DNA of 64,000 nucleotides from an uncultured Anaerolinea sp. (GTDB taxonomy: Bacteria > Chloroflexota > Anaerolineae > Anaerolineales > Villigracilaceae): assembly GCA_964422545.1 (NCBI GenBank), contig CAYRBO010000016.1, forward strand, positions 15,794 through 79,793, given 5' to 3'. Numbering within the stretch: position 1 is the first letter of the stretch; each line of letters begins with the position of its first letter. Made by a program: the position numbers and the translations under genes. Under the pieces are notes generated by a model. The model was given only the letters and a program-made list of their open reading frames with translations. It was not told the DNA's origin and ran no database searches. Shown here one piece after another: positions 166-18,610 of this stretch.

Positions 166-1338
166 CTATGGTACGTATTCATAAAGATTGTTGTTGTAAA
201 GTAGCCACAAGTTACCATTTCCGTCGCTTAATACATTTGTATCGACAGTGGAAAATTTGCACCATTTTCCCTTGGCGGGATCAAGCCATGTTAGACCCCC
301 TCCCCTTCTAAATAGAATCCTTCCGTCAGAGCTCTCAATCAAAGGAACGGGTCTGGCCCACACATAAGTGTAAAACGGGCTTATGTTTTTGGTGATAAAA
401 ATGGGCGAGCGCACAATTTGATGCCAAGTCGGATAATCTTTCGTGGTTAAATCGAGCCAGCCAAAATCATTTAGCCACAAGCGACCCAACCGGTCAAAAA
501 ATAAATCTACATACCCTTGTTCAACGAAATTACCTTCAGCGACCTCCTTCACACTAATCGTGCGCGATGTTTCAGTAGCAGGAAAATATTGCACGATTTC
601 CTTTTCTTTTGATCGTGACAGGAAAATGCTTCCATCTTGGGCGAGCGCAATTGACGCACCAAATTCATACCTTTTGCCAGAGATGTGTTTTTTCGCTTTT
701 GTGGTCTGTGGATCAAAACTATACAATGCTGTCTCATCCCGGCTGTTATGCTCTGCAACAAACCAGACAATCCCATACTCATCTATAGACTTTTTTAACT
801 CTCCCCACACACGCCAGTCCGTTGTGAGTTCTCCAGCGGCATCATCGACAAACTCAAACTTTCTATCCTCGCCCAAACGTAGGAAGAGCGGCACAGTTTT
901 ACGAGAGGTGAGTTGCAATGCCCAAACTTGACCGCTTTGAGATTGAAACAAGTTGACGGGGAGCGTTTCATCTCCATTCATCCCAAACGAAATGCTTTCC
1001 CATTGTCTGGTATCGGTTCGGTATAGGAAAAATTGATTATCAGACCTCAGCCAAAAAGTATCATAGCCTAAATGATGCTCGATCAGTTCAAGGCTTGTCT
1101 GGCTACTTTCGTTCAGAGTGGCTTGCATCTTCCATTCCGCAGGCAAAGGCACAAAGAGCGTCTCTGAAGAACTGCGGTCTTCCCTGACTGGGAATTCAAA
1201 TTCAGTAACGGGGGGAATACATCCATCATCTTTCGTCTGAGTTGGAATAGGGGTTAGTGCTAGCGATTGGGGTGCAATTGGCGCACACGCAGCTAACCCC
1301 AACACGATGGCATAAAATAGGACAAAACATTTTTTCAT
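166..1338 (-). CDS. Lipoprotein, putative immunity protein for the hydrolase-type Rhs tip upstream
   Basis: ORF 166..1356; likely start MKKCFVLFYAIVLGLAAC (signal peptide plus lipobox) at 1338. Lower GC than surroundings. It begins 6 nt after the stop of the orphan toxin cassette 1344..2777, the usual toxin-immunity arrangement. Confidence 0.45.
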   Translation of the reverse strand: MKKCFVLFYAIVLGLAACAPIAPQSLALTPIPTQTKDDGCIPPVTEFEFPVREDRSSSETLFVPLPAEWKMQATLNESSQTSLELIEHHLGYDTFWLRSDNQFFLYRTDTRQWESISFGMNGDETLPVNLFQSQSGQVWALQLTSRKTVPLFLRLGEDRKFEFVDDAAGELTTDWRVWGELKKSIDEYGIVWFVAEHNSRDETALYSFDPQTTKAKKHISGKRYEFGASIALAQDGSIFLSRSKEKEIVQYFPATETSRTISVKEVAEGNFVEQGYVDLFFDRLGRLWLNDFGWLDLTTKDYPTWHQIVRSPIFITKNISPFYTYVWARPVPLIESSDGRILFRRGGGLTWLDPAKGKWCKFSTVDTNVLSDGNGNLWLLYNNNLYEYVP

Positions 1339-1343
1339 GATTG

Positions 1344-2777
1344 TCACCTTGGCCAACCGAAGAAATCGTATATATCATTGCGGACGTATGGACTGTTGAT
1401 TACTGGATAGTGGTCCATCCTTGGATATGACTTATATCGATAAAAAGCCGTATCCGTTTGAGAAACTGAAAGCTTGGCAGTATCAATTCCACCGTAAGCA
1501 TCAGCAATGAAGACTGGAACCGCAGGAGCATTTGGCCCATTACTTGTAACCAAACCTTGCACAACTTTATCAAAATCTGAATTTTCTGGCATACCAAGAG
1601 TGCCAGCAGCAAAAGGTGGGTCGAGCAATATCACGGCATGAACCTGAGTTCCCGCATTGTGTAAATTATCAGCCACAACAACACCGGTATCTGCGCCAGC
1701 ACTAAATCCCACAATAACTACTGGCACGCCAGGGTGCTTTTCTATGATTTTTTCAGTATCGGATTGTTGCCCTGCTTTTGTACCGGGATAAGGAACATAG
1801 ATGGGTGTATAATCAGGATATTGCTTCTGCATTGTTGCTCCCCATCCAGTTAAATCTCCTTTAGACCCTGATATTCCACAATTTTCACCTTGGGCATTTA
1901 TGCTAGGACCCGTTGCTCCACACTCAAGAAGTATTATACCGGCTTGAGTTTTTGGTTTGACTGGTTTAGGCTTAGGTGGACATTTCCCCGCATCTTGGCC
2001 TGGGCAGCCGACATCATGCCCTGACGGGTCGTTATACCGGACGGGATTATTGTTCATCCCGGCATAGCGATCCCAGGCTTGCGTCCCCTGGCTCTCGAGC
2101 GGGATGATGGTATCCGCCTGGGTGAAGCGGCCTAGGCCGGGATCATACCATCTTGCGTTGTAGAACATCAGCCCAAACTCAGGGACGTTGCTGTATTGGC
2201 CGGTGTAGGTGTAGTTTGTGAAGGTGCTGCCCCAAGTATAACGGACTTCGCCCCAAGCGGTGTAGCGCATTTCGGAGGTCTTCGCGCCGGTCGAGTCGGT
2301 CGTCAGGCTGGTCGAGCCCAAATGGTCGCCGAGGATGAATTCGAGGGTCGCGGAGACGGGCACGGTGTACTTGCGCATGGCTATTCTTGTCGAACCAGCG
2401 AAATAATACTTGGTGATCGCGCTGCCAGTCTTTTCATAGTGCCCGCCAACAAAAACGGTTGTCTGTCCATCCGCTGTCGATTTTACCCGCTTTCCATCAC
2501 CGTCGTAGGTGAATTGGGCGATGGTGGCATTGTTTTTCTTGACTTCCACCACGCGATTTTCCCCTGCGGGGACGATGTCAGCGTTATACAAGAGTTGGTA
2601 CTGCCCATCGTTGGCGATGGCACGCTCTATCTGGCTGCCGTTGGCGTCATAAGTGTAGGTGTTGGGTGTGCCAGTGCCAGGTGCCAGGCGCGTTGCGGCG
2701 TGGGCGTGGGCCGAGTCGCCGTAGGTATACGCCAGGGACGCGGCGGTCCGCCTAGCGAAGCGGCCCCAAAATAACAC
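1344..2777 (-). CDS. Orphan Rhs C-terminal cassette (YD repeats + RHS core + alpha/beta-hydrolase-like toxin tip); no independent N-terminus
   Basis: Translation opens inside YD repeats (YTYDANG, FTYDGDGKRV) and continues through the core TKYYFAG...DHLGST...RYTAWGEVRYTWGST...GLMFYNARWYDPGLGRFTQAD...PVRYNDPSGH. The tip contains GFSAGADTG, a GxSxG nucleophile elbow typical of lipases and esterases. No start codon context; abuts the stop of the upstream ORF. Confidence 0.6.
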   Translation of the reverse strand: MLFWGRFARRTAASLAYTYGDSAHAHAATRLAPGTGTPNTYTYDANGSQIERAIANDGQYQLLYNADIVPAGENRVVEVKKNNATIAQFTYDGDGKRVKSTADGQTTVFVGGHYEKTGSAITKYYFAGSTRIAMRKYTVPVSATLEFILGDHLGSTSLTTDSTGAKTSEMRYTAWGEVRYTWGSTFTNYTYTGQYSNVPEFGLMFYNARWYDPGLGRFTQADTIIPLESQGTQAWDRYAGMNNNPVRYNDPSGHDVGCPGQDAGKCPPKPKPVKPKTQAGIILLECGATGPSINAQGENCGISGSKGDLTGWGATMQKQYPDYTPIYVPYPGTKAGQQSDTEKIIEKHPGVPVVIVGFSAGADTGVVVADNLHNAGTQVHAVILLDPPFAAGTLGMPENSDFDKVVQGLVTSNGPNAPAVPVFIADAYGGIDTAKLSVSQTDTAFYRYKSYPRMDHYPVINSPYVRNDIYDFFGWPR

Positions 2778-2779
2778 CG

Positions 2780-3742
2780 CTATTTGCCAAAGTCATACAA
2801 TAACTCAAAACACTTTGAACTGTTTTCGGGATGAACATACATCTCATAAAATGTCACTTCATCAATGCCGGATACATCGCTCAATTGAAGAAAAGGTCGT
2901 TCAGATGGCTCGTTCACAAATAAGAGCACCTTTCTTCCCGCTTCAGCAAATGGTATTTTGACAGAGGGATCCCACAAAAACCAAGACAATTGGTCTCCGC
3001 CAATCCTATCTGGGCAAATTTGTGGCTTTTCTTCTTTCGCGGCAGTTCCTTCGTAGACCGCTAATAATCCCTGACCTGAGTAAAATAATGCGATGGTGAA
3101 GGGTATTTCTGGGTTAATAGTTTGTCTATCCGCAAAAATCCATATTTCGTCTGGTTTACCATGCTTTTGTAGCATTTCTATCAAGGGATAATAGATGTCA
3201 GTAGAAATGGTTTGAACAACGCCATTTTCATCAATAGAAATTCCCGCGCCAATGGCGCCATCAGACACGTTAAGCGGTAGATTTTTATATGCGACCCAAT
3301 AAAAATCACTACTGAACGTGATAATTTCTGGCGACAGTGTCTCGAGAAAGTTTCGTGCTTCCTGCCAGGAGGTTTTGCCTGGCATAATACCCCACCAACA
3401 CGGCAGCTGGCAGCCGCCATTATTTGATAATAAATCCAGTACCAAGGCCTGTGCTGTTTCGGGTGAAAGCGTTGGACGCGGTATCCATGTTGGCGCAACT
3501 GATGTGGCGCGGGAAATGGGCGACTGGACTAAAAAGGGTGTTTGGGTAGATGGCTCTGTGATAATAACCCGGGGTGTTGCAGATGCAAATGCTGCTTTGC
3601 TCGGAATCTGACTGGCGGGTAACGGGAGAAAATCGATATCTGGGCGTAGGTTACAACTCGAAAATAGCAGCGCCCAAGACACAAGTGCATAAACAATCTG
3701 GATGGAATGGGATTTGGAAAGAAGTTTATTCATAATATACAC
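2780..3742 (-). CDS. Lipoprotein, putative immunity protein for the metallopeptidase-type Rhs tip
   Basis: Signal/lipobox LLFSSCN near the N-terminus (start 3742 or 3733). Begins 4 nt after the stop of cassette 3746..4726. No recognisable enzymatic motifs. Confidence 0.4.
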   Translation of the reverse strand: MYIMNKLLSKSHSIQIVYALVSWALLFSSCNLRPDIDFLPLPASQIPSKAAFASATPRVIITEPSTQTPFLVQSPISRATSVAPTWIPRPTLSPETAQALVLDLLSNNGGCQLPCWWGIMPGKTSWQEARNFLETLSPEIITFSSDFYWVAYKNLPLNVSDGAIGAGISIDENGVVQTISTDIYYPLIEMLQKHGKPDEIWIFADRQTINPEIPFTIALFYSGQGLLAVYEGTAAKEEKPQICPDRIGGDQLSWFLWDPSVKIPFAEAGRKVLLFVNEPSERPFLQLSDVSGIDEVTFYEMYVHPENSSKCFELLYDFGK

Positions 3743-3745
3743 CTT

Positions 3746-4726
3746 TCAACGGTTCAGCCAAAGCGGCATTTTTGAATTCATTAGTGTCATCCGCTGGGTT
3801 CCTAGACCACCATCGCGACCAGATAAATCCCAAGTGTTGTAAACCCAGCCAATGAACATGTCGGCGAACACCTCACTAGCTGTGTTGTCCCAGCCGAACT
3901 GCCAATTATCCCATCCGCCTGCAAAACCGTAATACCGACCATACTCATCTGTGTGATCCCCATCGGCATCTCTTAATAAATTTGCGTTCAAACTATTCTG
4001 AGCATCTTTGCCAACCACTTGGTTAAAGGCATGGCCGAGTTCATGTACGATAACGCGCATGTGGTTTTCCAGATAATTGGGAGAATCTTTAACCGAATAC
4101 AAAGTGATATGGTTATATGCGTTTGTGTATCCAGCGTTTCCGGGCTGCTCATTTGACCAGGTAAACGTAAAAATATTGCCATAAACTTTCTTGAACGCCT
4201 CAGCCGCCGATGAAACCTGCGGGCAATTATCATCCCAACCATCGCACATCTGATTGTAAGCTTGTTGAAAGGCTTTTGCCACATTTTCTACCGCAGTTCG
4301 GACTGCCTTTTTGGTTTTGGCAGTCCAGCCATTACCATCAAAGGTAATACCATACTGAGCATCGACAAATGGCAAACTCCAAGTGTCTGCACCATTGCAC
4401 TCCGGATCAGCGTTCGAGCCCGCGCAAACCGATGTATGCCCCGACGGATCGACGTACCTGAGCGGCGAATTATTGACATACGCATACCTGTCCAGCCCCT
4501 GCGCCCCTGGTGGGACAATCATATCCGCCTGGGCGAAGCGGCCCAAACCGGGGTCGTATCCCTTCCGCTGCGCTTTAGGGACGCTGCGCAGCCAGCGTGC
4601 CTGGTAAAACATTAGGCCGAAGCCTTCGGTTCCGCTGGTGGACGGGTCGTCCATGTACGAATACTGACCGGTGAAGGTGTAGTTTGTGAAGGTGCTGTTT
4701 TTACCACGAAGGAAACGACGGAACAC
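3746..4726 (-). CDS. Orphan Rhs C-terminal cassette with HExxH zinc-metallopeptidase-like toxin tip
   Basis: N-terminus LRGKNSTFTNYTFTGQYS is the truncated RHS core (diverged, ends ...RYVDPSGH). The tip carries VIVHELGHAFN, an HExxH zincin motif. The extreme N-terminus is encoded by the junction repeat 4690-4975 and is probably not genuinely coding. Confidence 0.6.
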   Translation of the reverse strand: MFRRFLRGKNSTFTNYTFTGQYSYMDDPSTSGTEGFGLMFYQARWLRSVPKAQRKGYDPGLGRFAQADMIVPPGAQGLDRYAYVNNSPLRYVDPSGHTSVCAGSNADPECNGADTWSLPFVDAQYGITFDGNGWTAKTKKAVRTAVENVAKAFQQAYNQMCDGWDDNCPQVSSAAEAFKKVYGNIFTFTWSNEQPGNAGYTNAYNHITLYSVKDSPNYLENHMRVIVHELGHAFNQVVGKDAQNSLNANLLRDADGDHTDEYGRYYGFAGGWDNWQFGWDNTASEVFADMFIGWVYNTWDLSGRDGGLGTQRMTLMNSKMPLWLNR

Positions 4727-4975
4727 GACGGAAGTGCACTCAAGGTTTTCCGTTGCGCTCCGTCGTCGCCGTTGTGGTGAAAATTTTTCGGCGCAGGCGC
4801 GTCCCTGGCCGCTGTTACGTCAGAGCTAGGCGCGCTCGTCGGCGGTCAGCAGACGTTTGTAGAGTGCCAGTTCGCAACGGGGTAATCTGGTTAGAGAGCC
4901 CCAGCCCCGGCTATGACCTGGCGTGCTGGGCAAGGCGTGTTAACTAGCGAAGCCATATCGAAACGCGGCCAATCT
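4690..4975. repeat. Cassette-junction repeat, copy A (~285 bp) with imperfect 17-bp inverted repeat
   Basis: About 200 bp are near-identical to 10370-10570 (gtgaaggtgctgtttttaccacgaagg[a/g]aacgacggaacacgacggaa...ttccgttgcgctccgtcgtcgccgttgtggtgaaaa...ggcgcgtccctggccg...gtttgtagag), then both copies rejoin at gcgaagccatat. Replaces the 5' part of the RHS core in this cassette. Confidence 0.6.
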
Positions 4976-5006
4976 CACACCGTCTGGAGATAGATATATT
5001 TTTCAT

Positions 5007-5549
5007 CTATTGCTCAACGAACAAATCCACATAAGCACCCACCGGAATCCCTGTTTTTTCATTACCGGATAATAATTCACCCACAACTAATATGCGCACA
5101 ATTTCTTCCTTACCTTCACTTCGAACATTTGGTTCAAGTATAGGGCGAACTGAGTTTGTAAAATAATTTGGTTGTGCGCCTATAATTGGGGAAAGAATAT
5201 ACCCATCTCCGCCAGTAATGCTATAGTATATAGTATCATTCCGTACTTCTACCCATCTCTTATTTTGGAGAACAAAAACTCTAACAAATAATGTGTCAGT
5301 ATTAGTTGAAAGATAGATTGACTCTCCAGAAATATTCTCAACCAAAATATGTACATCTGAACCGAACTTATATTGATCGCCTTTGATAGCTTTTACTCGT
5401 AAGTGAGTATTCATATTAGTAATTGGGATCATCTCTCCAAATAACTTTTCTAAATCGCTGGAAATAGTCGGTTGCTTTGTTGTGCAACCATGAAGACTAA
5501 AGATTAAGACAGCTATGCTAATAGCTATTTCAGCAAAGGTCGATTTCAT
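5007..5549 (-). CDS. Lipoprotein, putative immunity protein (AT-rich)
   Basis: MKSTFAEIAISIAVLIFSLHGC signal peptide plus lipobox. Markedly AT-rich. Begins 13 nt after the stop of orphan cassette 5562..6752. Confidence 0.45.
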   Translation of the reverse strand: MKSTFAEIAISIAVLIFSLHGCTTKQPTISSDLEKLFGEMIPITNMNTHLRVKAIKGDQYKFGSDVHILVENISGESIYLSTNTDTLFVRVFVLQNKRWVEVRNDTIYYSITGGDGYILSPIIGAQPNYFTNSVRPILEPNVRSEGKEEIVRILVVGELLSGNEKTGIPVGAYVDLFVEQ

Positions 5550-5561
5550 AGACGCAGACTC

Positions 5562-6752
5562 CTAAGGAAAAAGAGGCAAAGGTTGCCCGGTTTGCATAAA
5601 ATATCTCAAAGATGGCAAAGATGGTAGAGAAATTCTGATGTCAGGGTATATTCGAGACGGACCAGGAAAAGCAGAGCTCCCCAAATTTATAGATTGTTCA
5701 TACTCCAGTGTAATTGTCAGAGGGTCATTCCCGTTAAACTGCGGAGGGTTAGGAACAGAAAAATCACTACCAAACCCACTCGACAACCGAACAGAGCCAA
5801 CGGACCTCACAAGTGGCAGATTCCCACTTTCAAAAATTATCCCCGTAATATCCAAATAATCTCCTGAATAATTTACCAATGTCATATCAGATATTGCGAT
5901 ACCCGTAGCCTCATCATATGTGGCCGTGAAATGTACCCAAAAATTCGCGTCCGTATTTTGTGGGCCAACAAAACCGAACCTGAGAAAAAGTGCCAGAGCG
6001 CAAACTGGAGCACCCTGGCGGGTTCCACAAACAGACGCTTCATTAAGGGATAGAAAATCATCACTGCTTTGATCTGGAGCATTAGCAGGAGAACCACCTA
6101 TATGGTAGCCCAAATCTATTTGTCTGGAAAAGTGCCACGTTTGGGCGGGTTGCGGCGGTTGTGGAGGCGGAGGCGGGGATGTTCGCTTTTTATAACGAAT
6201 TTCGCCATCACAACCCTGTTCATCACAGGCCTTATGCCCGCTCGGGTCATTATACCTGACGGGATTATTGTTCATCCCGGCATATCTATCCCAAGCCTGG
6301 ACGCCCTGGCTCTCGAGCGGGATGATGCTGTCCGCCTGGGTGAAGCGGCCAATATAAGGGTCATACCACCTGGCGTTGTAGAACATCAGTCCAAAATCAG
6401 GGACGTTCGAGTATTGTCCGGTGTAGGTGTAGTCGGTTGGCGTGCTGCCCCAAGTATAACGGACTTCGCCCCAAGCGGTGTAGCGCATTTCGGCAATTTT
6501 CGCGCCGCTGGCGTTGGTGGTGATACTGGTCGAGCCGAGGTGGTCGGTCAGGTAATAGACCGGGTCAGTGCAAGTCGTGTCGGAGCAAGTCCGCGAGGCG
6601 ATGCGCTGGGTACCGGCGAAGTAGTATTTCGTCCAGACGGTTGCGCCGTAGGCGGAAGTTGTTAGGGCGGCGGGGCGGAGTTTGGCATACGAGGCCATCC
6701 GCCCGGTAGGTTGGGCAAGGGCGGCCAGTTTGGCGCCGCCGGAGGGGTGCAA
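5562..6752 (-). CDS. Orphan Rhs C-terminal cassette with uncharacterised toxin tip
   Basis: N-terminal ~170 aa (GGAKLAALAQP...TKYYFAGTQRIASRTCSDTTCTDPVYYLTDHLGSTSITTNASGAKIAEMRYTAWGEVRYTWGSTPTDYTYTGQYSNVP...PVRYNDPSGH) are near-identical to residues of the main Rhs protein. Then a Pro-rich linker and ~200 aa with no motif I recognise. Confidence 0.6.
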   Translation of the reverse strand: MHPSGGAKLAALAQPTGRMASYAKLRPAALTTSAYGATVWTKYYFAGTQRIASRTCSDTTCTDPVYYLTDHLGSTSITTNASGAKIAEMRYTAWGEVRYTWGSTPTDYTYTGQYSNVPDFGLMFYNARWYDPYIGRFTQADSIIPLESQGVQAWDRYAGMNNNPVRYNDPSGHKACDEQGCDGEIRYKKRTSPPPPPQPPQPAQTWHFSRQIDLGYHIGGSPANAPDQSSDDFLSLNEASVCGTRQGAPVCALALFLRFGFVGPQNTDANFWVHFTATYDEATGIAISDMTLVNYSGDYLDITGIIFESGNLPLVRSVGSVRLSSGFGSDFSVPNPPQFNGNDPLTITLEYEQSINLGSSAFPGPSRIYPDIRISLPSLPSLRYFMQTGQPLPLFP

Positions 6753-6818
6753 GGTTAGCGGGCCGATGTACCCGTCGCGCCGCGATTCGAAACCTGCCCT
6801 GAATATGAAAGGTGGTAA

Positions 6819-7211
6819 CTACCGTGGAATTCTCTTACTCTGTGAGGATTTTTTTCTGACAACATAACGCCGCGAAACATAGTAGGTGAAAAGTATGGGT
6901 AGAATGATGATTAGCGCAAAACCAATTAGAAACTCTTGTCTAGATGGCTTCCAGAACATGACTATGGTCAAGTATATTCCTAGTAGAAGGCCAAATATTT
7001 GTCCTCTAAATCCATCTACGCTCATCGTTCCTCTCGGATAATCAGCATTGATCGGAGTACCACAAAGATAATATAGCCATTTTGGGGGAACAATAATTTT
7101 ATCGACATTTTCTTTGGTTGTTCGTTTCGACATAACATGAGTAGTGATAAAAAAGCCAAGTATCCACGAACCTATTGCCAGTATCAAAAGGGGCTCCATA
7201 CGATGCTCCAA
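6819..7211 (-). CDS. Small polytopic membrane protein, putative immunity protein
   Basis: Three to four hydrophobic helices, AT-rich, begins ~20 nt after the stop of cassette 7233..8165. Confidence 0.4.
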   Translation of the reverse strand: MEHRMEPLLILAIGSWILGFFITTHVMSKRTTKENVDKIIVPPKWLYYLCGTPINADYPRGTMSVDGFRGQIFGLLLGIYLTIVMFWKPSRQEFLIGFALIIILPILFTYYVSRRYVVRKKSSQSKRIPR

Positions 7212-7232
7212 TATCCAATATTTGAAATAATT

Positions 7233-8503
7233 TCATCTTAGCTCTTGACGATTTTGTTTATTTTTATGTGGGATTTCTCCGAGGGAATCTACCCAATTAA
7301 GCCAATGGTTCTGCACGGTCGCAATACTTAAACTCCTCGCTAAATTATAAGTCACTGTTCCTGCCGTTTTAGAACCTGATACTGTCGTTACTACGGTATC
7401 CGCTAATTCGGCAGTAAAACCAAAACCATAGCCACCAACAGCCGCACTCCCAAAATCCATCCCTCCGGTAGGGGATAAATCGTCATCAAACTGGTCATTC
7501 AAAGCGATGGATGCTTGTGCTCCTAATGCATTTATTCCAGCCCTCGCCGCTTGGGCTGTAAAGCTACTTGCAACTTTTGCTTCTAAAACGGCAGGGCCGG
7601 TCAATGCGACAGCAGCACCCGTAGCCATACCAATTAAGGCATTGCCGGTCATTTCTTGTGAATTGTAACTTTCACCAGCTGTGACAGAATAAGCCGCAGC
7701 TGATGTAGCGGCACCTACACCTGCACCGAAGAGAGTAGCCCCAATAGCTGTCCCTGCTCCTGCGCCAACTCCTGAACCAATCAACAACCCTGCTGTTGCG
7801 CCAACAAAAGCAGCTTGCATGTAATCTCTCGGTGTCAAATTTGGATGGGTAAAATACACAATCGCAACACCAACTACAGCCCCTCCCACTAATCCTACAA
7901 GACATGTAGGACAATGCCCTGACGGGTCATTGTACCTGACGGGATTATTATTCATCCCGGCGTACCTGTCCCAAGCCTGGACGCCCTGGCTCTCGAGCGG
8001 GATGATGGTATCCGCCTGGGTGAAGCGGCCTAATTGGCCGTCGTACCACCTTGCGTTATAGTAATACAGCCCAAACTCAGGGACGTTGCTGTATTGACCG
8101 GTATAAGTGTAGTCGGTGGGCGTGCTGCCCCAAGTATAGCGCGCATCGCCCCAGGCGGTACCCACTCCGCTGCGCTACGGGGGGCTGCGCGCTAGCGCAT
8201 TTCGGCAATTTTCGCGCCGTTGGCGTTGGTGGTGATACTCGTCGAGCCAAGGTGGTTGGTCAGGTAATAGGCCGGGTCAGTGCAAGTCGTGTCGGAGCAA
8301 GTCCGCGAGGCGATGCGGAATGCCCCGGCAAAGTAGTATTTCGTCCAGGTGGTCGCGCCGTAGGCGTAGTTGGTCAGGGCTGCGGGGCGGGTTTTCCCGA
8401 CCTGACGGCGGGACGATGTCGGCCATCCGGCCATGCGCCCGGCGGGTTGTGCGAGCGCGGCCAGTTTCGCGCCGGTGGCTGGCGCAGGACGAATTTTAGT
8501 CAC
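7233..8503 (-). pseudogene. Disrupted orphan Rhs C-terminal cassette (glycine-zipper tip paralogous to the main Rhs tip)
   Basis: ORFs 8192..8503 (GAKLAALAQPAGRMA...TKYYFAG...GAKIAEMR) and 7233..8165 (ARYTWGSTPTDYTYTG...DPSGHC, then a Gly/Ala-rich tip ending KQNRQELR like the main protein's KHKQELR) are in different frames. A ~35-bp insertion (acccactccgctgcgctacggggggctgcgcgc) at 8165-8200 interrupts the conserved AEMRYTAWGEVRYTW segment. Confidence 0.5.
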
Positions 8504-8530
8504 TCACCCATATCCGCGATCTGTAGTGAA

Positions 8531-10598: not shown

Positions 10599-10640
10599 AT
10601 TGGCCCCAGTCCAGGCATGTGTCTCGTTGGGACACTTTCG
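10370..10640. repeat. Cassette-junction repeat, copy B
   Basis: Near-identical to 4690-4890. Contains the hairpin ggaacgacggaacacgacggaa / ttccgttgcgctccgtcgtc. Sits immediately 5' (gene orientation) of the truncated core of cassette 9501..10598. Confidence 0.6.
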
Positions 10641-10653
10641 GGTTAGAAATCTT

Positions 10654-10995: not shown

Positions 10996-11014
10996 AGAGA
11001 TTACCTCCTTGTAT

Positions 11015-14000
11015 TCATCGTAATTCCTGTTTATGCTTTTTAGCCTGACTTTGTCCCCATTGTGTCGCAAAAGAAGTGGTAACACCTGTAAAAGTTCCTT
11101 GCACGGCTGACCATCTTGTCCATTGAATTTGGTTGATTATGGTTTTATTTGGCGAAAGAAATTCGCCAGCAAGGGTACTGGCCCCACTGTCAAGCGCGCC
11201 GCCGAATGCACCACCAGCAAAAGCAATTCCAAGATCTGGAAGCGAAAACTCATCTGGTGACGTTGCCGCAAGATACGATGCCGCGCCACCAATTCCTTCA
11301 GCCAACATCTTTTTTCCTAATGGTTGACCTGAACTTGCTGCTGCCGTCAGCCCAGCAATTGCCGCATTGCCGACATAAGGAGCACTCTCAAATTCACCAG
11401 GATTCTGAAACATATAAGACTCTGCGGCAAGACCTGTCGCCACACCTACCCCAATGTATGTACTCGCTGTAGTTGCAGCTGCCGACATAGTTGCGTTTGT
11501 TGCCGCAAGAGTAGCGCCTGCCGCTGCGGCTGCTGTGCTTGTAGAGGCGGCTGCCGCAACAATACCAATCCCTGAACCAACCAAGGCTCCGGCGACAACA
11601 CCTACTCCTATGGCTACAGCAAGTTCTTTACCGTTAAAACTATTCCCTTGATTTGTGATTGCATAAGTAACGCCAGCAATCACTCCTCCTGCCAGAGCCC
11701 CGATAAGGGCTGTGCACAAAACCACACAATGCCCTGACGGATCGTTATACCTGACGGGATTATTGTTCATCCCGGCGTACCTGTCCCACGCCTGGACGCC
11801 CTGGCTGTCGACCGGGATGATGGTGTCCGCCTGGGCGAAGCGGCCTAGCGAGCCGTCGTACCACCTTGCGTTATAGTAATACAGCCCAAACTCAGGGACG
11901 TTGCTGTATTGGCCGGTGTAGGTGTAGTCGGTTGGCGTGCTGCCCCAAGTATAACGGACTTCGCCCCAAGCGGTGTAGCGCATTTCGGCAATTTTCGCGC
12001 CGCTGGCGTTGGTGGTGATACTGGTCGAGCCGAGGTGGTCGGTCAGGTAATAGACCGGGTCAGTGCAAGTCGTGTCGGAGCAAGTCCGCGAGGCGATGCG
12101 CTGGGTCCCGGCGAAATAATACTTTGTCCACGTAGTTCCGCCGTAGGTGTAGGCCTGAGCCTGGGCAGCGGGGCGTGACTTGGATAGTCCGGCCATGCGC
12201 CCGGCGGGTTTAGCGAGCGCGGCCAGTTTCGCGCCGCCGGAGGCAGGTTGGGATGGTTCAAACCCTGTCGAAGGCATGCGGTATGTAATGACCAGTTTGG
12301 GCCGCTGGGAGGTCGTGCCGTTATCGGAAGTCTTGAAATTGAAGCGGTCGTTCAGTTCGGCCTCGGTCTTGAGCAACAGGCCATGGTTGGGGACCGCCCC
12401 GCTCACCCATTCCTGCACCCTGGCCGGGTCAAGCGCCATCTGTTTCTCGACCCCCAGCGGTTCGTTATGCGCCACCTGCATCGAGCCGATAGCCGCGCTT
12501 TCGCGGTCATTAGCACCCGCCGCGCCGGGCGACTGCCAGGGAGCGCCGGAAGCGGCATTGTTCCAGGTCGCCTGGCTTTCGCTGAAGGGGACTTTCAGGC
12601 GGTAAGCGCTGATGGTGCTGTCATTGCTTGCCAGGTCGCCATCCGTCCACAGCGAGAGGGTCACCGAAAGAATCTCGGCGTTGGCAGGCAGGGCCGAAAG
12701 GTCGAACTTGAGCAGGCTGCGGGCGAAGTTGTTGGCATAGTCATTCCTTTCACCAATGCCCATGCCTCCCGCGCCGCCATAGTTGTTGTTGTCGGCGCTC
12801 AGGATGTACGCATCGAGGCCGTTCGCGCTATTGGGTTGCAGGGTGAGGGTGTAGACGCTGCCGCCGGGGGTCGGGCTGGGCGTGGGAGTGGGAGTGAATG
12901 TGGACGGAACGGTTGCCGTTGGCGTAACGGTTGGCGTGCGCGTGGGGGTCGCGCTGGGCGTGGGGGAAGGGGTCGGCGAGGCGGTGCTGGTCGCCGTCGG
13001 CGAGGCGGTAAAGGTGGCGGTGGGAGTGGGCGTGCCTTGTTTGACTTCCAGGTGCCCGCCAATGAACAGGGTCGTCTCGCCGTTAATGACCGACTTTACG
13101 CGCCGGCCGTCGCCATCATAGGTGAAGTGGGCATTCATGCCGCTGCCAGTGACCGAGACCAGGCGGCCTTCGGCATCGTAAGCGAGGGTCATAGTCTGTC
13201 CATTGATGGTTCGGCTGACCTGGTTGCCGTTGGGGTCATAGGTGTATGTATTTCCGTTGGAGAGCGAGGCAACGGCGTGGGGGTGATTCGGGTCGTAGGT
13301 GTAGGTCACGCCGGCTTTGGCGGCCAGGTTGCCGGTCAGGGGGTCGTATTGATAGGATTCGTTGTATAGGCCGCTTGTTCCGCCCGTTGCCTGAGCCGCG
13401 GTCAGGCGGTCGAGGGCGTCGTAGGTGAAGTCTTGTAATTGCGGCGCGCCTGCCGCCCAATCCCTAATCCAATCAATGTTGCCAACCGCATCATAGGCAT
13501 ATTCGAGCGATTGCAGCGAGGTGGGAGCGGCGCTGGTTCCCGATTTGATGAAGCGCAGCCGCCCGCCCTGCTGGTTCCAGGCAAAGTAATCGTAATCGGT
13601 CTGCGTGCCGCTGCCATAAGCGCGGATGTTCATGCGCCCGGCAGAATCGTAGGAGGTGGAAGTGACATACGGGCTGCTGCCGCTGACTGTTTCGAGCAGC
13701 ATTTGCGGCGCGTAGGTGTTCGTCACCACTTCGCCATCGGGATAGGTCATCGTCACAGGCAGGTCAGCGCTGTTGTAGGTCCAACCCGTTGTAAAGGATT
13801 GCCCGCTGATGATTTTGGTTTCGGTGAGCATTCGCCCGCGCCAGTCATAGGTCCAGGCGCTGCTGCCGCTGGCGTCGCTCATGCCCGTGCGGCGGCCTTT
13901 GCCGTTCGTCCCAAGGTCATACGTATATGAAGTGTTCACCTGCGTCCCGCACCCCGCGCCGGAGGAGGCTTTGGAGGTCAGCCGGTTGAGCAGGTCGTAG

Positions 14001-17000
14001 CTCAGGGTCAGGCTGCATCCGCGCGCGTCGGTTTGGCTCGTCAGGTTACCGAGCGCGTCGTAGGCGTAGGTCCATCTGCCCATATCGGGATCAGACATGG
14101 TGATTTTGCGCCCGCCAGCGTCGTAGGACAACGTTGTAATTACACCACCGCGCGCCGCCGTCAGCAGGCGGTCGAGCGGGTCGTAGGTATACGCAACGCC
14201 GGGGCCGGCCGGCGGGGTAATAGACGTGGTGCGCCCCCAAACATCGGCGATGCTGGTGGTGACGCGCCCGGCCGGGTCGGTGAGGCGGGTGACCAGGCCA
14301 TCAACGACGGTTGTAGTTTGCGCGCCGTCGGGGGTGGTAATGGTGCTGCTCTTCACGCCGCCCTGGTAAACAGTTTCGCTGGTGGTATAGGCCGGGCTCT
14401 CGCCGGGGCCGTATGGCGCGCTCTGGCGGATTTTGGTGAAGGTATCGTACAGCGTATCAACCGTGTTGAACACGTTGAACGCGCCATCTACGCCTGTGCT
14501 GCTGCCGGTTTCCTGTTTGAACTGGCGGCCCAGGCCGTCATACCGGCGGCGCACGCCGTAGTAGCGGTTGTCATCGATGCGCTGGCGGATGGTGGTGGTA
14601 AACGGCGCGCCGTTTGAGTAACTGATGGCAAGTGTCGGGTTGGCGGAATCATCCTCCGGTCGTATCAATTTGACCAGCCGCCCAAAGACATCATATTGCG
14701 CGCTGGTTATAGCCCCGTTTGGGTCGGTTTCGCTCAACGGCACGCCCAGGGCATAGTCGTAGGTCCAGGTGGCGGTTTGGTTGAGCGGGTTGGTGGTCGA
14801 GGTTGGGTAGGTACGGTAGATGGGGTCAAAAACAGTGGTGGTTGCGCGCGCGCCCACGGTGGGGTTGGCGTTCCAGGCCCCGTACCCGCTCCAGGTGGTT
14901 TCGCTGGTGCGGTTGCCCCAGGCATCATAGCCGTAAGAAACCTGGTGATAACGATTGGCGGGCTGAGCAAATTCGAGCAGCGTGCGCACCGCGGTCAATT
15001 TGCCTTGCGCGGGCTGCACGCCCACTTCCAGGTTGTCGTACAAATATTGCGTAGCTCCGAGCAATCCGCCGCCCGAATCGTAGAGATGCGTGTTTTTGGG
15101 CAGGCCAACCAGGTAAAGGCCGTTCAGGTTGGGCGGCGCATAGGCGGTCGTTTCGCGGATTTTGGTTTGCCAGGCCGAACCACTCTTCTCCTGTCGCAGG
15201 GTTTCCACCAGGTTACCGTAGGTCGATTCGTAAGAAGAAGTGGTTTTGGTGGCCTGGTAAGAATTGTCATTGGCATAGACGCGGTTTTCTTCGATAGAGA
15301 GGTAAATCCAGTTTCTCGACAGGCCTTTGTAGAAACAATCGCCAACATGGCATCCATCGACGCTTGGATACGACATATCCAGGGGGTTGACGCTGTACGT
15401 GTAAAGTGTTTGCGAGTATGTCTTGCCGCCGGAATCCTGGATGGTCACGCTGATTGGGCGGCCTTTCAGGCTGTCGCCCTGGTGATACTGGGTAATCGTC
15501 TTCAACCCGGCGGGGTTGGTTTCGGTGACTGTTGCATGGCCGCGAAATTCGCTATACTTTTCGACATAGGCCGGGCAGGGTGAGGCGGGAGGATTATATG
15601 GGTCATAATCTGGGCAGATGTTCAACAGGGTGTTGCCGTTTGGGAAAGTAACCATCTCGGCGGTGCTGTCGGTGTTGACGGTTGCTCCGGAGTAAGAATA
15701 AGTGTACGTATGAGCATTGCCCTGTCCATCGTCGATGGTTTTGCTCGTCACCCGGTAAATGGAAGTGAGCAGGCGGAATTCGAAGTAGTAGAAACGTCCA
15801 TACCCAGCGCCGGTCACATTGATTTTTGGGTCGGCTTTCGATGCATTGGCTGGTAAAACCTGGACGCTCTCATTGGCCGCGTAGTTGGTTTGCGTACCAT
15901 TGAATAATCCCAGGCTGAGGCTTGTTCCAGCATCCACGCTGCCATGTACCATGAGTTTATATGCGCCGCCGGGTCGAAACAATCCCAGGCCTGGCAGGTT
16001 GGCCTCTCTTGCCACCCCCGAAATAATCATCAGGTCAGCGCCAAGTGTATTTTCCTGGCAATATAATTGTCCGCTTTCGCGCGTCCACCCAAACAAATTA
16101 CATTCTCTCCTGGTTGGGCCAAAATATTGATAATGCGAGCGTGAGCCAGGAGAGTTGGCAGCATAATGCCACATACCGTAATTGAACTGCACCGCGCCGC
16201 CGTAGCCATTCTCTGCTCGGGTCAGGTGCATGTTGTCGCCATAGGTAAAGGTGTGCGCCGGCAGGGCCGTCGTTCCGCCCAGCCCATATTCGGTTATCTT
16301 CTTGAGGGTAGTGGTTTTGCCCCCCGCCGTCCACGAAACCCCGGGCCAGATGAGATTGGCGGGGTTCGTTTCGTATTCGAGTTGATATTTGCGGATAATC
16401 GTTTCGAATACGCCGTCGCCGTCCGCGTCTTGTTCTACGATAATCGAGATCAAGCGCGAGCGTTGGAACTCACGAAAAGGAGCGTCCGTTATCCACTCAA
16501 CCGGATAATCGGAACGCGCCTCGCGTACGAAACGTATCCGGTAACGATTGTGGGGATAGACAATAGTGTTTAGGTATGTGGCAGTTACCGAAGGAACGAA
16601 TGGTCCATGCGCGCTGCAAACATATACTCCCTTGCTGTTCTTCTTCCAGACCCAGGTTTGGAACTCTTTGGTTTCGTCAATGTAGGAATACACCAGGGAC
16701 TTCCCATGCGCGTTCTGTACCCTGGTCAACATCCATTTGTAAGGCAAATCATATTTGCCGCAAATCTCGTCGCTCCCGCCATCCAGGTTATATTGCATCG
16801 AGACCATTTTCTCGAAGTAGTATACGTTTCCTATCTTGTCCCATACTGTCCAGGATGTATCTCCATTGTTTTGAATTTTCCAAAAATTTTCATCCGTCAG
16901 GTGATATCGGGAATCAGCGTTGCTCCAGACAATCGTGCTGCTCACCCCACTCACATTCAGCATGAAAGTATCATCGCCGGTAAAATGGCTGGTGCCGTTG

Positions 17001-18610
17001 TTGTTGCGCTCGATGGAACCTGCATCCAGCGACCAGCCCATGCCTACCCACGAAGCCTGGGTTTTGGCAATTGATTGGTCAACCACCTGGCTGTTGTAAT
17101 TGAGCAATAAACTCGGCTGCAAGCCGCCCGGTCCAGGTGGTACTTCGATGGGGTAGGAGTAGGTGGCCGCACCGGTAAAATTAGACACCTGGAAGGCATC
17201 AATGGTCGGCAGGTGATTGGCCTGCCAGTTGTTGACGCCAATATCGAAGACGGTGAAGTGATTCGAGTACCCGCGCACGACCTTGTTTTCTTTATCCACC
17301 ACCGTTGTCAGCGCATGCCAGGTATCTAACGCAGGGTCATACCAGTGCAGATATAAATCTCCTTCCAGGAGCGGGGGTATCTCGTAATCGGCGTAAGAAA
17401 CTTCGATTTCCACATCATCCTGGAACGTATCCACGCCGCGCTTGCTTTGCGCCCCGCGCGCCGTGATTTCGAAGGGACGCCCGCTCATAGAATGAGATGG
17501 CATCGATTCACGCAGGGGTTTGTGGATGAAAACTTCGACGGATTCAGAGAGTGCGCCTTCAGGGAATTCGACCCGGACCTTGTTTTTCAGCCCGGCTGCC
17601 TGCCCGCCCGCTTGATTGACGCTTACTTTCTCGAACAGGGCCAGGGAACCTTGCCAAGCCCCGCTTTCCTGCTCGCTAGTGGATGGGCTTTTTCCTGCAT
17701 TGTTCACCAGGCGGGCGTCGATGTACAGCGGCAGTTCCGCCTCATCGGAAATTTCCATCTTGAAATCGCCCTTGAGGGCAAAGGGAACTTGCAGCGTATT
17801 GTTTTCTGGGTTGTACGTACCGTTTTTGTCCGCTTGTTTGATAAAAATGCCCCGAGACAGGGAAAACTCGATTGCGTCATAGCCAGTTACACCCTCTACA
17901 ACTTTCCATCGAATAGTCGCCTGCCCGCCCGGCGTGATGAACCCCGGGTTCGATTCCAGCCAAATTTGCTGCCCCACCGGGACGGGCGTTACATCATCTT
18001 CCTTCGGGGATAGAGTGGAAGTCGGCTCAGGCTGCGGCGTTTCGGTCGGCAGCGCTTCATCCGTTGGAAAGGGAGTCGCGCTTTCGGCTGGCTCTGTTCC
18101 CGTGACCGATGTGCCGTCACCCGGTTCGCTGGTAGGCGTCGGCGTCGAAGTTTTATCGTCTTCTTGTTGCAAAAAACCGGGAGCCGCGGCAACCATTCCT
18201 GGTAATACTGCTCCCGATTGGGCAGCCGATGTTTGTTTTGCAAAAACTGTCGCAGGGGGAACAATTTGCTGGAACAGCAAAATAAACAACATGCCGCAAT
18301 TGATGAGCAGTTTAATGATAGCCTCCTGGTAACAGCAATGGTTTAGGAGCGACAATATTGAGTTAATTATCGTCAAAAAATACACATTTGGCAACGAAAT
18401 ATGGGACAGGTTGGTTGGGAAATATTTCCCAAATGTTCGTTTCTGTAAATAGCCTCTCTGCCAGCCCAGGTCTTCTCCAAAATCCAGTTTGCGTTTCCAG
18501 TCGGTTGTCAGGTAAATCCTTACAGGTGGAGCGTTTCGAGCAAAACACAATGCCGCAACGCAAATATTCCTGGGGATGGATTTTGACGCCACTCTTGCGA
18601 ACACATCCAA
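11015..18610 (-). CDS. rhs: Full-length Rhs-repeat polymorphic toxin (signal peptide, Thr/Pro linker, SpvB/Tc-like region, YD-repeat shell, RHS core with inserted DNRLRE-like domain, glycine-zipper C-terminal tip)
   Basis: 2531-aa ORF. A more plausible start is ATG at 18292 (MLFILLFQQIVPPATVFA, signal-like). Dozens of YD repeats (YxYDxxGR/NL). Core TKYYFAG...DHLGSTS...RYTAWGEVRYTWGSTPTDYTYTGQYSNVPEFGLYYYNARWYDGSLGRFAQADTIIP...PVRYNDPSGHC. Then ~260 aa rich in G/A/S/T/I/V with GxxxG-type spacing. Confidence 0.85.
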   Translation of the reverse strand: MDVFARVASKSIPRNICVAALCFARNAPPVRIYLTTDWKRKLDFGEDLGWQRGYLQKRTFGKYFPTNLSHISLPNVYFLTIINSILSLLNHCCYQEAIIKLLINCGMLFILLFQQIVPPATVFAKQTSAAQSGAVLPGMVAAAPGFLQQEDDKTSTPTPTSEPGDGTSVTGTEPAESATPFPTDEALPTETPQPEPTSTLSPKEDDVTPVPVGQQIWLESNPGFITPGGQATIRWKVVEGVTGYDAIEFSLSRGIFIKQADKNGTYNPENNTLQVPFALKGDFKMEISDEAELPLYIDARLVNNAGKSPSTSEQESGAWQGSLALFEKVSVNQAGGQAAGLKNKVRVEFPEGALSESVEVFIHKPLRESMPSHSMSGRPFEITARGAQSKRGVDTFQDDVEIEVSYADYEIPPLLEGDLYLHWYDPALDTWHALTTVVDKENKVVRGYSNHFTVFDIGVNNWQANHLPTIDAFQVSNFTGAATYSYPIEVPPGPGGLQPSLLLNYNSQVVDQSIAKTQASWVGMGWSLDAGSIERNNNGTSHFTGDDTFMLNVSGVSSTIVWSNADSRYHLTDENFWKIQNNGDTSWTVWDKIGNVYYFEKMVSMQYNLDGGSDEICGKYDLPYKWMLTRVQNAHGKSLVYSYIDETKEFQTWVWKKNSKGVYVCSAHGPFVPSVTATYLNTIVYPHNRYRIRFVREARSDYPVEWITDAPFREFQRSRLISIIVEQDADGDGVFETIIRKYQLEYETNPANLIWPGVSWTAGGKTTTLKKITEYGLGGTTALPAHTFTYGDNMHLTRAENGYGGAVQFNYGMWHYAANSPGSRSHYQYFGPTRRECNLFGWTRESGQLYCQENTLGADLMIISGVAREANLPGLGLFRPGGAYKLMVHGSVDAGTSLSLGLFNGTQTNYAANESVQVLPANASKADPKINVTGAGYGRFYYFEFRLLTSIYRVTSKTIDDGQGNAHTYTYSYSGATVNTDSTAEMVTFPNGNTLLNICPDYDPYNPPASPCPAYVEKYSEFRGHATVTETNPAGLKTITQYHQGDSLKGRPISVTIQDSGGKTYSQTLYTYSVNPLDMSYPSVDGCHVGDCFYKGLSRNWIYLSIEENRVYANDNSYQATKTTSSYESTYGNLVETLRQEKSGSAWQTKIRETTAYAPPNLNGLYLVGLPKNTHLYDSGGGLLGATQYLYDNLEVGVQPAQGKLTAVRTLLEFAQPANRYHQVSYGYDAWGNRTSETTWSGYGAWNANPTVGARATTTVFDPIYRTYPTSTTNPLNQTATWTYDYALGVPLSETDPNGAITSAQYDVFGRLVKLIRPEDDSANPTLAISYSNGAPFTTTIRQRIDDNRYYGVRRRYDGLGRQFKQETGSSTGVDGAFNVFNTVDTLYDTFTKIRQSAPYGPGESPAYTTSETVYQGGVKSSTITTPDGAQTTTVVDGLVTRLTDPAGRVTTSIADVWGRTTSITPPAGPGVAYTYDPLDRLLTAARGGVITTLSYDAGGRKITMSDPDMGRWTYAYDALGNLTSQTDARGCSLTLSYDLLNRLTSKASSGAGCGTQVNTSYTYDLGTNGKGRRTGMSDASGSSAWTYDWRGRMLTETKIISGQSFTTGWTYNSADLPVTMTYPDGEVVTNTYAPQMLLETVSGSSPYVTSTSYDSAGRMNIRAYGSGTQTDYDYFAWNQQGGRLRFIKSGTSAAPTSLQSLEYAYDAVGNIDWIRDWAAGAPQLQDFTYDALDRLTAAQATGGTSGLYNESYQYDPLTGNLAAKAGVTYTYDPNHPHAVASLSNGNTYTYDPNGNQVSRTINGQTMTLAYDAEGRLVSVTGSGMNAHFTYDGDGRRVKSVINGETTLFIGGHLEVKQGTPTPTATFTASPTATSTASPTPSPTPSATPTRTPTVTPTATVPSTFTPTPTPSPTPGGSVYTLTLQPNSANGLDAYILSADNNNYGGAGGMGIGERNDYANNFARSLLKFDLSALPANAEILSVTLSLWTDGDLASNDSTISAYRLKVPFSESQATWNNAASGAPWQSPGAAGANDRESAAIGSMQVAHNEPLGVEKQMALDPARVQEWVSGAVPNHGLLLKTEAELNDRFNFKTSDNGTTSQRPKLVITYRMPSTGFEPSQPASGGAKLAALAKPAGRMAGLSKSRPAAQAQAYTYGGTTWTKYYFAGTQRIASRTCSDTTCTDPVYYLTDHLGSTSITTNASGAKIAEMRYTAWGEVRYTWGSTPTDYTYTGQYSNVPEFGLYYYNARWYDGSLGRFAQADTIIPVDSQGVQAWDRYAGMNNNPVRYNDPSGHCVVLCTALIGALAGGVIAGVTYAITNQGNSFNGKELAVAIGVGVVAGALVGSGIGIVAAAASTSTAAAAAGATLAATNATMSAAATTASTYIGVGVATGLAAESYMFQNPGEFESAPYVGNAAIAGLTAAASSGQPLGKKMLAEGIGGAASYLAATSPDEFSLPDLGIAFAGGAFGGALDSGASTLAGEFLSPNKTIINQIQWTRWSAVQGTFTGVTTSFATQWGQSQAKKHKQELR

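Follow-up and report, generated by a model that had tools for sequence, protein, structure and literature searches.

The 64,000-nucleotide stretch of DNA analysed here (hereafter the window; contig CAYRBO010000016.1 of assembly GCA_964422545.1, from an uncultured Anaerolinea sp.) very probably carries a chromosomal rhs polymorphic-toxin locus, in which one expressed Rhs gene is accompanied by a reservoir of spare tip/immunity cassettes beside a tRNA gene; we put the probability of this reading at about 0.85. All genes of the locus are encoded on the minus strand. Within the window, a single full-length Rhs gene (the main gene) is followed by five 5′-truncated fragments (orphans A–E), which keep core homology and the orientation of the main gene and have no initiation or export signals (Table 1). 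A prediction made earlier from the sequence alone had described six cores of about 300 bp in a single orientation; all six copies are indeed on the same strand, but those of D and A are truncated to 262 and 214 nt, respectively.

The repeated core was recovered by several methods. A direct-repeat search returned a 300-nt family with five members at 69–89% identity and a 63-nt sub-family covering all six copies. In a blastn comparison of the window with itself, the main core aligned with orphan C over 516 nt (86% identity), B over 567 nt (80%), E over 316 nt (84%), A over 207 nt (85.5%), and D over 120 nt (71%), with E-values between 1e-58 and 1e-172 except for D (3e-7). All six translated copies matched the NCBIfam model TIGR03696 (Rhs_assc_core) at 42–60 bits, the curated cut-off being 32.5 bits. 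The core repeat is real and far beyond chance. The profile scan and core alignment proposed with the original prediction bore it out, with matches to both RHS repeats (PF05593) and the Rhs core (TIGR03696), and with cores far more alike than the flanking DNA, in which recombination breakpoints could be located.

The peptide P.RY.DPSGH was found six times, with the last bases of its His codons at 11729, 10164, 7914, 6234, 4436, and 2016, and nucleotide identity among the copies dropped to background directly 3′ of this codon. As had been predicted, each core is trailed by a different tip, and the tips are unrelated or barely related. The guanine plus cytosine (GC) content was 0.56–0.62 in the cores, 0.45–0.50 in the tips, and 0.32–0.45 in the downstream open reading frames (ORFs), compared to 0.577 in the remainder of the window; this gradient from core to tip to immunity ORF is the classic composition pattern of rhs loci. 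The canonical motif of the Rhs aspartyl autoprotease is DPxGx18DPxG (PMC10684867). Its second half is invariant in the window (NDPSGH), while the first Asp lies within QAD[TS]II, 28 residues upstream, a variant also present in the relatives P0036, P0037, and P0041.

Over the last 69 core codons, pairwise synonymous divergence (dS) was 0.34–0.73 and the ratio of nonsynonymous to synonymous divergence (dN/dS) was 0.09–0.27. The core copies are therefore old and have diverged under constraint at the protein level; judged by these values, they would stem from several rhs lineages and not from recent local duplication. Taken together with the non-homologous 5′ junction of A and D and the lack of an inserted domain in E (both described below), the dS values indicate an origin of several cassettes in other rhs lineages. 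The word "displaced", which the original prediction applied to the cassettes, is thus only partly apt.

Evidence of exchange was found within the expressed gene itself. The main core and orphan C share an exact tract of 194 nt (12106–11913, identical to 6611–6418), compared to longest exact tracts with the main gene of 60 nt for B, 52 nt for E, 37 nt for A, and 20 nt for D. Wherever B and C differ, the main core agrees with B between 12230 and 12107, with C at 19 consecutive informative sites (12106 to 11918), and once more with B between 11905 and 11735 (maximum chi-square permutation p 0.003). This B–C–B mosaic is a gene-conversion patch, and the shared tracts indicate past recombination between the main gene and the orphans. 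Orphans A and D, together with a third cassette in the contig L009, have a non-Rhs leader of about 200 nt joined to the core at one identical point (GGTAAAAAC/AGCACC, translated KN/STFTNYT), behind which three different tips follow; tips were therefore exchanged downstream of a single ancestral junction. Contigs from three other metagenomes (L009, L010, and L011) contain an array in which cassette D comes after three novel pairs of tip and partner. That cassette is 96.5–96.7% identical to the copy in the window and has other upstream neighbours and another core truncation point, while the D-to-E junction is conserved. Similarly, the protein P0026 has a copy of tip E (96% identity) behind another core variant, and the linker after its His also differs. 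The gene-conversion patch, the shared junction with three tips, and the occurrence of cassette D in another array support the predicted switching of tips by recombination at the core.

Several junctions within the array were reproduced in independent assemblies from several runs, at 96.5–100% identity. These covered the succession of C tip, immunity gene C, and D leader (L005–L008), the D–E junction (L009 and L011), the passage from E to a further core (L015 and L016), and the adjacency of tip A and its CPBP gene (L018). Positions 1–2069 and 1–1672 of the window have 100% identical counterparts in the Logan contigs L015 and L016, respectively, both of which extend 393 nt past the window edge. 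They reveal a seventh Rhs core, reading ...HWLVSDHLGSTS...YTAFGEIR...ARFYDPYLNRFAQADTIIPLE, which starts about 65–230 nt beyond the left edge; the stretch from position 165 outward corresponds to L015:1905–2462 and L016:1508–2065. The locus is therefore longer than first noted: the array had been bounded at position 166, but it has six orphans or more and runs on past the window edge.

The main gene matched PF05593 in four stretches (1.3e-31) and TIGR01643 (3e-18), and its ORF was the only one in the rhs locus to match RHS/YD repeats and an SpvB-like N-terminal segment. The SpvB match reached 27–28 bits against a cut-off of 22 and covered profile positions 3–75 only. Solved structures related to the protein by sequence were all Rhs cocoons (8qja, 8h8a, RhsA 7q97, Tse5, Tse15, and Tre23). 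No PAAR domain was detected in Pfam and NCBIfam scans of the protein, no LysM or cell-wall-binding domain was found in it, and Pfam detected no family of integrin-like beta-propellers. The ORF is open back to TTG 18610, which had been taken as the start. The real start is likely near 18316–18292, possibly at a non-ATG codon following AGGAGG, because a promoter-like site (18394–18366) and a strong AGGAGG are present and homology to the related locus of SKYG2 (see below) starts at 18429. Translated from ATG 18292, the protein begins with MLFILLFQQIVPPATVFA followed by KQ, a hydrophobic, signal-peptide-like segment with a cleavage-like end (VFA/KQ), after which come a linker rich in Pro/Thr and some 350 residues that matched no family. 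A signal peptide and a YD-repeat shell had been claimed for this copy only; the full shell is confined to it, but about 170 aa of such a shell remain in orphan E.

An insertion of about 290 residues, made up of Pro/Thr linkers and a CBM96/DNRLRE domain, separates the shell strands FIGGHLEVK and TKYYFAG of the main protein. The insertion site is a beta-hairpin of the last shell turns, near the C-terminus, where orphan E and the unrelated Rhs proteins P0036, P0037, and P0041 have a tight turn. The 3′ end of the insert is kept in orphans B and C and is absent from E, hence B and C descended from an insert-bearing Rhs and E did not. This CBM96-type module is a candidate surface- or receptor-binding device.

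The six tips are 220–237 aa long and mutually unrelated, apart from a weak resemblance between those of the main gene and orphan B (Smith-Waterman z 7.6 against shuffles; BLASTP E 0.55). These two had been described as glycine-zipper paralogs; their similarity holds, but only as a distant one, and the ORFs that follow them are unrelated to each other. Both are rich in Gly/Ala (32–35%), with hydrophobic segments and many small-xxx-small motifs; the main tip has two N-terminal hydrophobic segments, 33 such zipper-like motifs, and a G+A fraction of 0.35. Based on this composition, the main tip is probably a membrane-active toxin with a membrane-permeabilising action. Scans of the whole orphans and isolated tips with Pfam and NCBIfam returned nothing for tips A (a low-complexity sequence), B, C, D, and main, and sub-threshold matches to hydrolase families for tip E. 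Searches of PDB sequences with tips D, E, and main gave nothing meaningful; likewise, a profile of tip C had no meaningful match and no structural relative among PDB sequences.

The predicted GxSxG hydrolase and HExxH peptidase were both upheld by fold and conserved residues. The AlphaFold2 model of tip E (predicted local distance difference test, pLDDT, 79) had 141 PDB matches at E≤1e-3, all of them alpha/beta hydrolases (TesA, monoacylglycerol lipases, and thioesterases). Its relatives (13 in a library of 1.8 billion proteins; seven of the ten tested have an Rhs core) conserve GxSxGxD (G103/S105/G107), D132, D172, and H202. Tip E is thus modelled as an alpha/beta hydrolase, with the nucleophile elbow GxSxG, an acid (D132 or D172), and a His. 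Tip D is predicted to be a metallopeptidase of the zincin fold, with an HExxH helix and a third ligand; HELGH and a further Glu are invariant in its family, and many members have NPxxYxDPSGH upstream. Tip C belongs to a small family with the conserved motifs PDQSSDDFL and PLTITLEY, whose members are found on Rhs cores. Recurrence on Rhs cores elsewhere thus applies to tips C, D, and E, and the locus brings to light three candidate Rhs-associated toxin families for which Pfam and NCBIfam have no model. These are a PPEP-like zincin, accompanied by a lipoprotein with the motif CxLPCxWGIxPG, a small alpha/beta hydrolase, and the PDQSSDDFL family, also accompanied by a lipoprotein.

An ORF follows every tip, and all six encode envelope proteins, either membrane proteins or lipoprotein-like proteins. 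They comprise three lipoprotein-like proteins, two membrane proteins, and one CPBP protease, all AT-rich, in agreement with the original prediction. In the partners of C, D, and E, a Cys comes after a signal-peptide-like N-terminus; only the E partner has a classic lipobox. The partner of tip A matched PF02517 at 39.3 bits (cut-off 22.4), and its translation includes the CPBP motifs EExxxR, FxxxH, and HxxxN as IEEACFR, FWGIH, and HTLIN; by sequence it is an intact CPBP (Rce1-like) protease. CPBP/Abi proteins are bacteriocin immunity factors in lactic-acid bacteria, and in both cases the CPBP gene directly follows a secreted toxin gene, which here would encode an Rhs tip and not a small peptide bacteriocin.

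Conserved pairing of tip and partner was found for C and D only. Homologues of tip D (33–39% identity) on two unrelated contigs (L012 and L013) are each followed by a protein of 305–310 aa that is 25–28% identical to the D partner and has the motif CxLPCxWGIxPGxT in common with it; the tip D homologue in the L009 array is also trailed by a homologue of the D partner. In L014, a homologue of tip C (67%) lies on a truncated core, with a C lipoprotein homologue behind it and another core further on. For C and D the pairing is evidence of co-inheritance, and neutralisation by the partner is presumed. Since each of the six partners is a membrane protein or lies outside the cytoplasm, the toxins are suggested to act on the membrane or cell surface, as lipase/esterase, as peptidase of the surface or wall, and as pore formers. 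In the L009 array, however, one partner looks cytoplasmic, and the envelope location is therefore a tendency rather than a rule. Envelope-acting toxins would suit a secreted Rhs without an injection machine.

A coherent mechanism can be proposed on the basis of known Rhs biology (PMC8636562, PMC10684867, PMC3967940, PMC3150448), by analogy with which we infer the secretion route, autocleavage, toxicity, neutralisation, and contact dependence. The expressed Rhs would consist of an N-terminal secretion signal, an SpvB-type plug, a YD-repeat cocoon with the inserted CBM96/DNRLRE domain, the core, and a Gly/Ala-rich tip of about 237 aa. As in solved Rhs proteins, the core would serve as C-terminal plug and autoprotease, and the tip would be cleaved after DPSGH and held within the cocoon. 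The protein would be exported via its signal peptide, with the tip released at a competitor to act on neighbouring cells, while the adjacent small membrane protein would shield the producer and its kin. The promoter-less and start-less cassettes (at least six, five of them in the window) would constitute a reservoir of alternative tips, each of which could be grafted onto the expressed gene by homologous recombination within 120–570 nt of core homology, through crossover with deletion or through gene conversion. Orphan immunity genes would meanwhile defend against neighbours deploying the corresponding tips. Orphan-to-main recombination of this kind was demonstrated experimentally in Salmonella (PMC3967940).

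Several observations weigh against this proposal. The signal peptide was judged by eye and the start is uncertain; read from ATG 18292, the signal has no basic n-region. The autoprotease motif departs from the canonical one in its first half, both in reading QAD[TS]II and in its Asp–Asp spacing. Tip A had no detectable relatives among the sequences examined, and toxicity and neutralisation are presumed from sequence. No tip replacement was observed in the main gene, and no population variant with a swapped tip was recovered, as contigs broke at the repeats. Orphan B contains a TAG and a frameshift, the 5′ part of the D core contains a 33-nt insertion, and A and D are short of most of the core. 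Given such damage and the short exact matches of D and A to the main gene, some cassettes could be grafted through short tracts only.

The damage to the cassettes is also the basis of the alternative that survives best, namely that the downstream cassettes are decaying remnants kept for their immunity genes alone, an immunity island whose tips can no longer be deployed. The TAG and frameshift in B, in-frame TAGs in the L009 copies, the loss of most core and of any start or export signal from A and D, and the exact tracts of just 20–37 nt in the latter two would all fit such decay, and orphan immunity genes are known to protect (PMC10539506). However, all five orphan tip frames are intact across 220–229 codons, the disruptions lie solely 5′ of usable core homology, and the main/C patch indicates ongoing exchange. 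We regard exclusive decay as possible but doubtful; moreover, the roles of immunity island and tip reservoir are compatible.

It is improbable that the orphan modules are expressed alone from internal starts (for example, the Met of GMNNNP or GTG 4726) as intracellular toxin–antitoxin-like pairs. RHS orphans of Salmonella do act as toxin–antitoxin modules (PMC7043789), and gene callers predict ORFs from the internal Met, but all partners in the window are exported or membrane proteins, ill-suited as cytoplasmic antitoxins, and the leaders have no convincing promoter-like sites. Terminator counts were at the level of shuffled sequence, and no convincing internal promoters or terminators were found between the cassettes. 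A Tc-type (TcB–TcC-like) toxin directed against eukaryotes such as insects or protists, rather than against bacteria, would account for the SpvB-type N-terminal segment, the signal peptide, and the lack of type VI and type VII secretion system (T6SS and T7SS) genes in the 64 kb, and the TcdB/TcaC class is recorded for Chloroflexi (PMC3482391). We nevertheless consider it quite improbable, given that the window contains no TcA-like gene, that Pfam detected no integrin-like propeller, and that every tip has a cognate-looking envelope gene for self-protection, which is sensible only if the organism's own kind is targeted. Finally, the metagenomic origin of the contig and the breaking of short-read contigs from other samples within cores could suggest that strain variants of one rhs 3′ end were strung together during assembly, but this chance is close to negligible and an assembly chimera was rejected, since independent assemblies give the same junctions and the mutually unrelated tips are not strain variants.

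Small hairpin elements, found only in and next to this locus, were observed at several points. The homologous leaders of A and D contain an imperfect hairpin of about 89 nt (z −4.25), the end of which coincides exactly with the leader/core junction; the leader copy in L009 (about 1850–2050) is without 11 nt of one hairpin arm. Searches with Rfam, of the whole window at the gathering threshold and of the A leader at E≤5, returned no family for this leader, and a metagenome scan with a 25-mer of the hairpin gave no match. Two further insertions, I1 in the orphan D core (4559–4591, minus strand; 33 nt, between ARW and YDP) and I2 in the orphan B core (8161–8192, minus strand; 32 nt, between MRY and TAWG), are related hairpins with the loop AGCGYAGCGGA at two distinct core positions and are absent from the main gene. 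I1 is read through in frame in the window and contains a TAG in L009, and I2 brings a TAG and a frameshift. Related insertions occur in L009 at about 213–245, 2124–2156, and 3983–4015, and a resembling hairpin (18805–18826, plus strand) lies inside the truncated FGE-sulfatase ORF upstream of the Rhs gene. In a metagenome scan, the 33-nt insertion pattern was found in two contigs only, both from the same array as L009, and the status of a genome-wide repeat was not demonstrable for either the insertion or the leader hairpin. The motif AGCGCARCGGA (5 occurrences in the window vs. 0.14 expected, all in or next to the locus) was considered as a link between leaders and insertions and dropped, as the pattern was post hoc, the two leaders share ancestry, and the leader in L009 has not kept the motif. 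The elements may be repair scars, functional sites, or mini-repeats that untranslated DNA tolerates. It is very improbable that upkeep of the array goes beyond homologous recombination, with the elements as sites or footprints of a dedicated mechanism for the capture, movement, or silencing of tip cassettes, an integron-like or miniature-transposon layer on the polymorphic-toxin locus.

Table 1. Features of the rhs locus and its borders, listed by position from the upstream border to the left edge of the window.
Feature	Coordinates	Strand	Basis or remarks
tRNA-Arg(TCG), upstream border of locus	19252..19325	-	ARAGORN, Rfam
Truncated FGE-sulfatase-like ORF between tRNA and Rhs gene	18576..18947	+	PF03781, profile positions 155-210 only
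Promoter-like site of Rhs gene	18366..18394	-	TTGCCA-17-GATAAT; promoter search
Full-length Rhs gene	11015..18292	-	PF05593 1e-31, TIGR01643, PF03534 27 bits; counted from ATG 18292
SpvB-like segment of main Rhs	16940-17179	-	PF03534
YD-repeat shell of main Rhs	about 12971-16933	-	PF05593, TIGR01643
CBM96/DNRLRE/disaggregatase-type domain in shell	12284..12814	-	NF033679 1e-28, PF06848, PF24517 3e-13
Main core	11729..12243	-	TIGR03696 at 11729-11977
Main tip	11018..11728	-	Composition: Gly/Ala-rich
Small ORF with three transmembrane segments (3-TM), presumed immunity for main tip	10654..11085	-	Hydropathy; GC 0.34; likely start ATG 10995
Non-Rhs leader of orphan A	10378..10653	-	Imperfect hairpin of ~89 nt at 10378-10466
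Orphan A	9501..10377	-	Truncated core 10164-10377 (TIGR03696 from profile position 13), tip 9501-10163
CPBP/Rce1-like intramembrane protease, presumed immunity for tip A	8531..9385	-	PF02517 8e-10
Orphan B	7233..8474	-	Core 7914-8474, Gly/Ala-rich tip 7233-7913
Small 3-TM ORF, presumed immunity for tip B	6819..7211	-	Hydropathy
Orphan C	5562..6745	-	Core 6234-6745, tip 5562-6233
Lipoprotein-like ORF, presumed immunity for tip C	5007..5549	-	Signal-like N-terminus and Cys; homologue in L014
Leader of orphan D	4698..5006	-	Homologous to A leader, about 90% identity
Orphan D	3746..4697	-	Truncated, diverged core 4436-4697; predicted HELGH zincin tip 3746-4435
Lipoprotein-like ORF, presumed immunity for tip D	2780..3742	-	Motif CxLPCxWGIxPGxT; homologues in L012, L013, L009
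Orphan E	1344..2777	-	~170 aa YD shell without CBM insert, core 2016-2264, predicted alpha/beta-hydrolase tip 1344-2015
Lipoprotein, presumed immunity for tip E	166..1356	-	Lipobox LAAC; possibly beta-propeller-like
Spacer toward seventh Rhs core	1..165	-	Logan contigs L015, L016

The host is Anaerolineales-like (Chloroflexota). The nearest genomic relative of the main Rhs was found in the metagenome-assembled genome "Anaerolineales bacterium SKYG2", with 78% amino acid identity over residues 60–1727, where it runs off the contig end. A 6-kb contig binned as "uncultured Desulfuromonadales" (L004, CAZYXS010000179.1) encodes an Rhs that is 69–78% identical at the nucleotide level to the Anaerolineales-type gene, probably due to mis-binning or horizontal transfer. 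In SKYG2 the Rhs gene directly follows a tRNA-Thr, as opposed to the tRNA-Arg here, and the upstream 10 kb of the SKYG2 locus had no nucleotide similarity to the window, so that synteny gave no island boundary. The different tRNAs and the lack of upstream synteny fit an island, and the rhs locus is suggested to be tRNA-linked. In the array of another population (L014), genes for an IS110-family transposase and a DDE_Tnp_4 transposase are situated among the orphan cassettes (L014:817–2043 and 3561–3818).

A scan of 20 large ORFs outside the locus identified them as housekeeping genes; no T6SS, T7SS, TcA, sortase, PAAR, or SecF-like partner gene was found among them. The window also contains a T-box leader (97 bits; 30433–30763, minus strand) upstream of an anthranilate synthase/trp operon (28937–23429), an LCP-family gene, and a Ser/Thr protein kinase fused to a concanavalin-like GH43_C2/DUF1349 domain (38556–41237, plus strand). 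A HerA/DUF87-like ATPase, which adjoins a DUF5667 protein, and a NurA-domain nuclease lie about 9 kb apart (47226–49799 and 58632–59936, both on the minus strand).

To our knowledge, interbacterial weapons have remained essentially unstudied in this Chloroflexota lineage. The locus would represent a complete T6SS-independent Rhs system of an uncultured member, with at least seven tips and visible recombination tracts. The lipoprotein-like partners find a parallel in the T6SS, where periplasmic proteins confer immunity to lipase and amidase effectors. Three such partners in one locus are somewhat uncommon, as a survey of polymorphic toxins noted only one lipoprotein immunity family, Imm65 (PMC3482391).

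Compared with known systems, the main and B tips resemble those of the Rhs pore-former Tse5 (PMC10684867) and the glycine-zipper protein EsxX (PMC12744356), which depolarise membranes and have membrane immunity proteins, in being Gly/Ala-rich and accompanied by small polytopic partners; they have no detectable sequence similarity to either, and a like function is proposed from composition only. The TcdB/TcaC class (Zhang et al., 2012; PMC3482391) combines a signal peptide, an SpvB-like segment, and RHS repeats, as the main Rhs with its signal-like N-terminus would, and is recorded in Chloroflexi, but its defining integrin-like beta-propeller was not detected by Pfam in the main Rhs, and no TcA was seen in the window. 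In its presumed export, the main Rhs also resembles the Sec-dependent WapA type of monoderm bacteria, known from Bacillus subtilis and Streptococcus suis (PMC12704120), a signal-peptide Rhs without T6SS. In S. suis, WapA-CT1 has a DNRLRE domain and adjoins a truncated WapA-CT2 with a different tip, as in the window; its DNRLRE domain is N-terminal, beside LysM, whereas the module in the window is placed between the last shell strands. Furthermore, neither LysM nor cell-wall-binding repeats were found in the window Rhs, no sortase or SecF-like partner was among the 20 ORFs scanned, and the S. suis tips are nucleases.

The orphan arrays of enterobacteria (Dickeya, Salmonella, and E. coli; PMC3150448, PMC3967940) agree with the locus in layout. 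They too consist of 5′-truncated fragments with core homology in the same orientation, with a sharp boundary at PxxxxDPxG and AT-rich tips and immunity genes, and recombination grafts their orphans onto the main gene. The differences are that the window locus belongs to a Chloroflexota host and has a predicted N-terminal signal instead of PAAR, VgrG, and T6SS, that its boundary motif ends in H rather than L, and that its partners are all envelope proteins, whereas enterobacterial immunity proteins are mostly cytoplasmic. Main-plus-orphan rhs arrays are textbook examples and well documented (PMC3150448, PMC3967940, PMC3482391), and calling the locus unusual, as was done originally, was an overstatement. 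It leaves the current picture of Rhs biology unchanged and provides a large, clean example of this known main-plus-orphan system.

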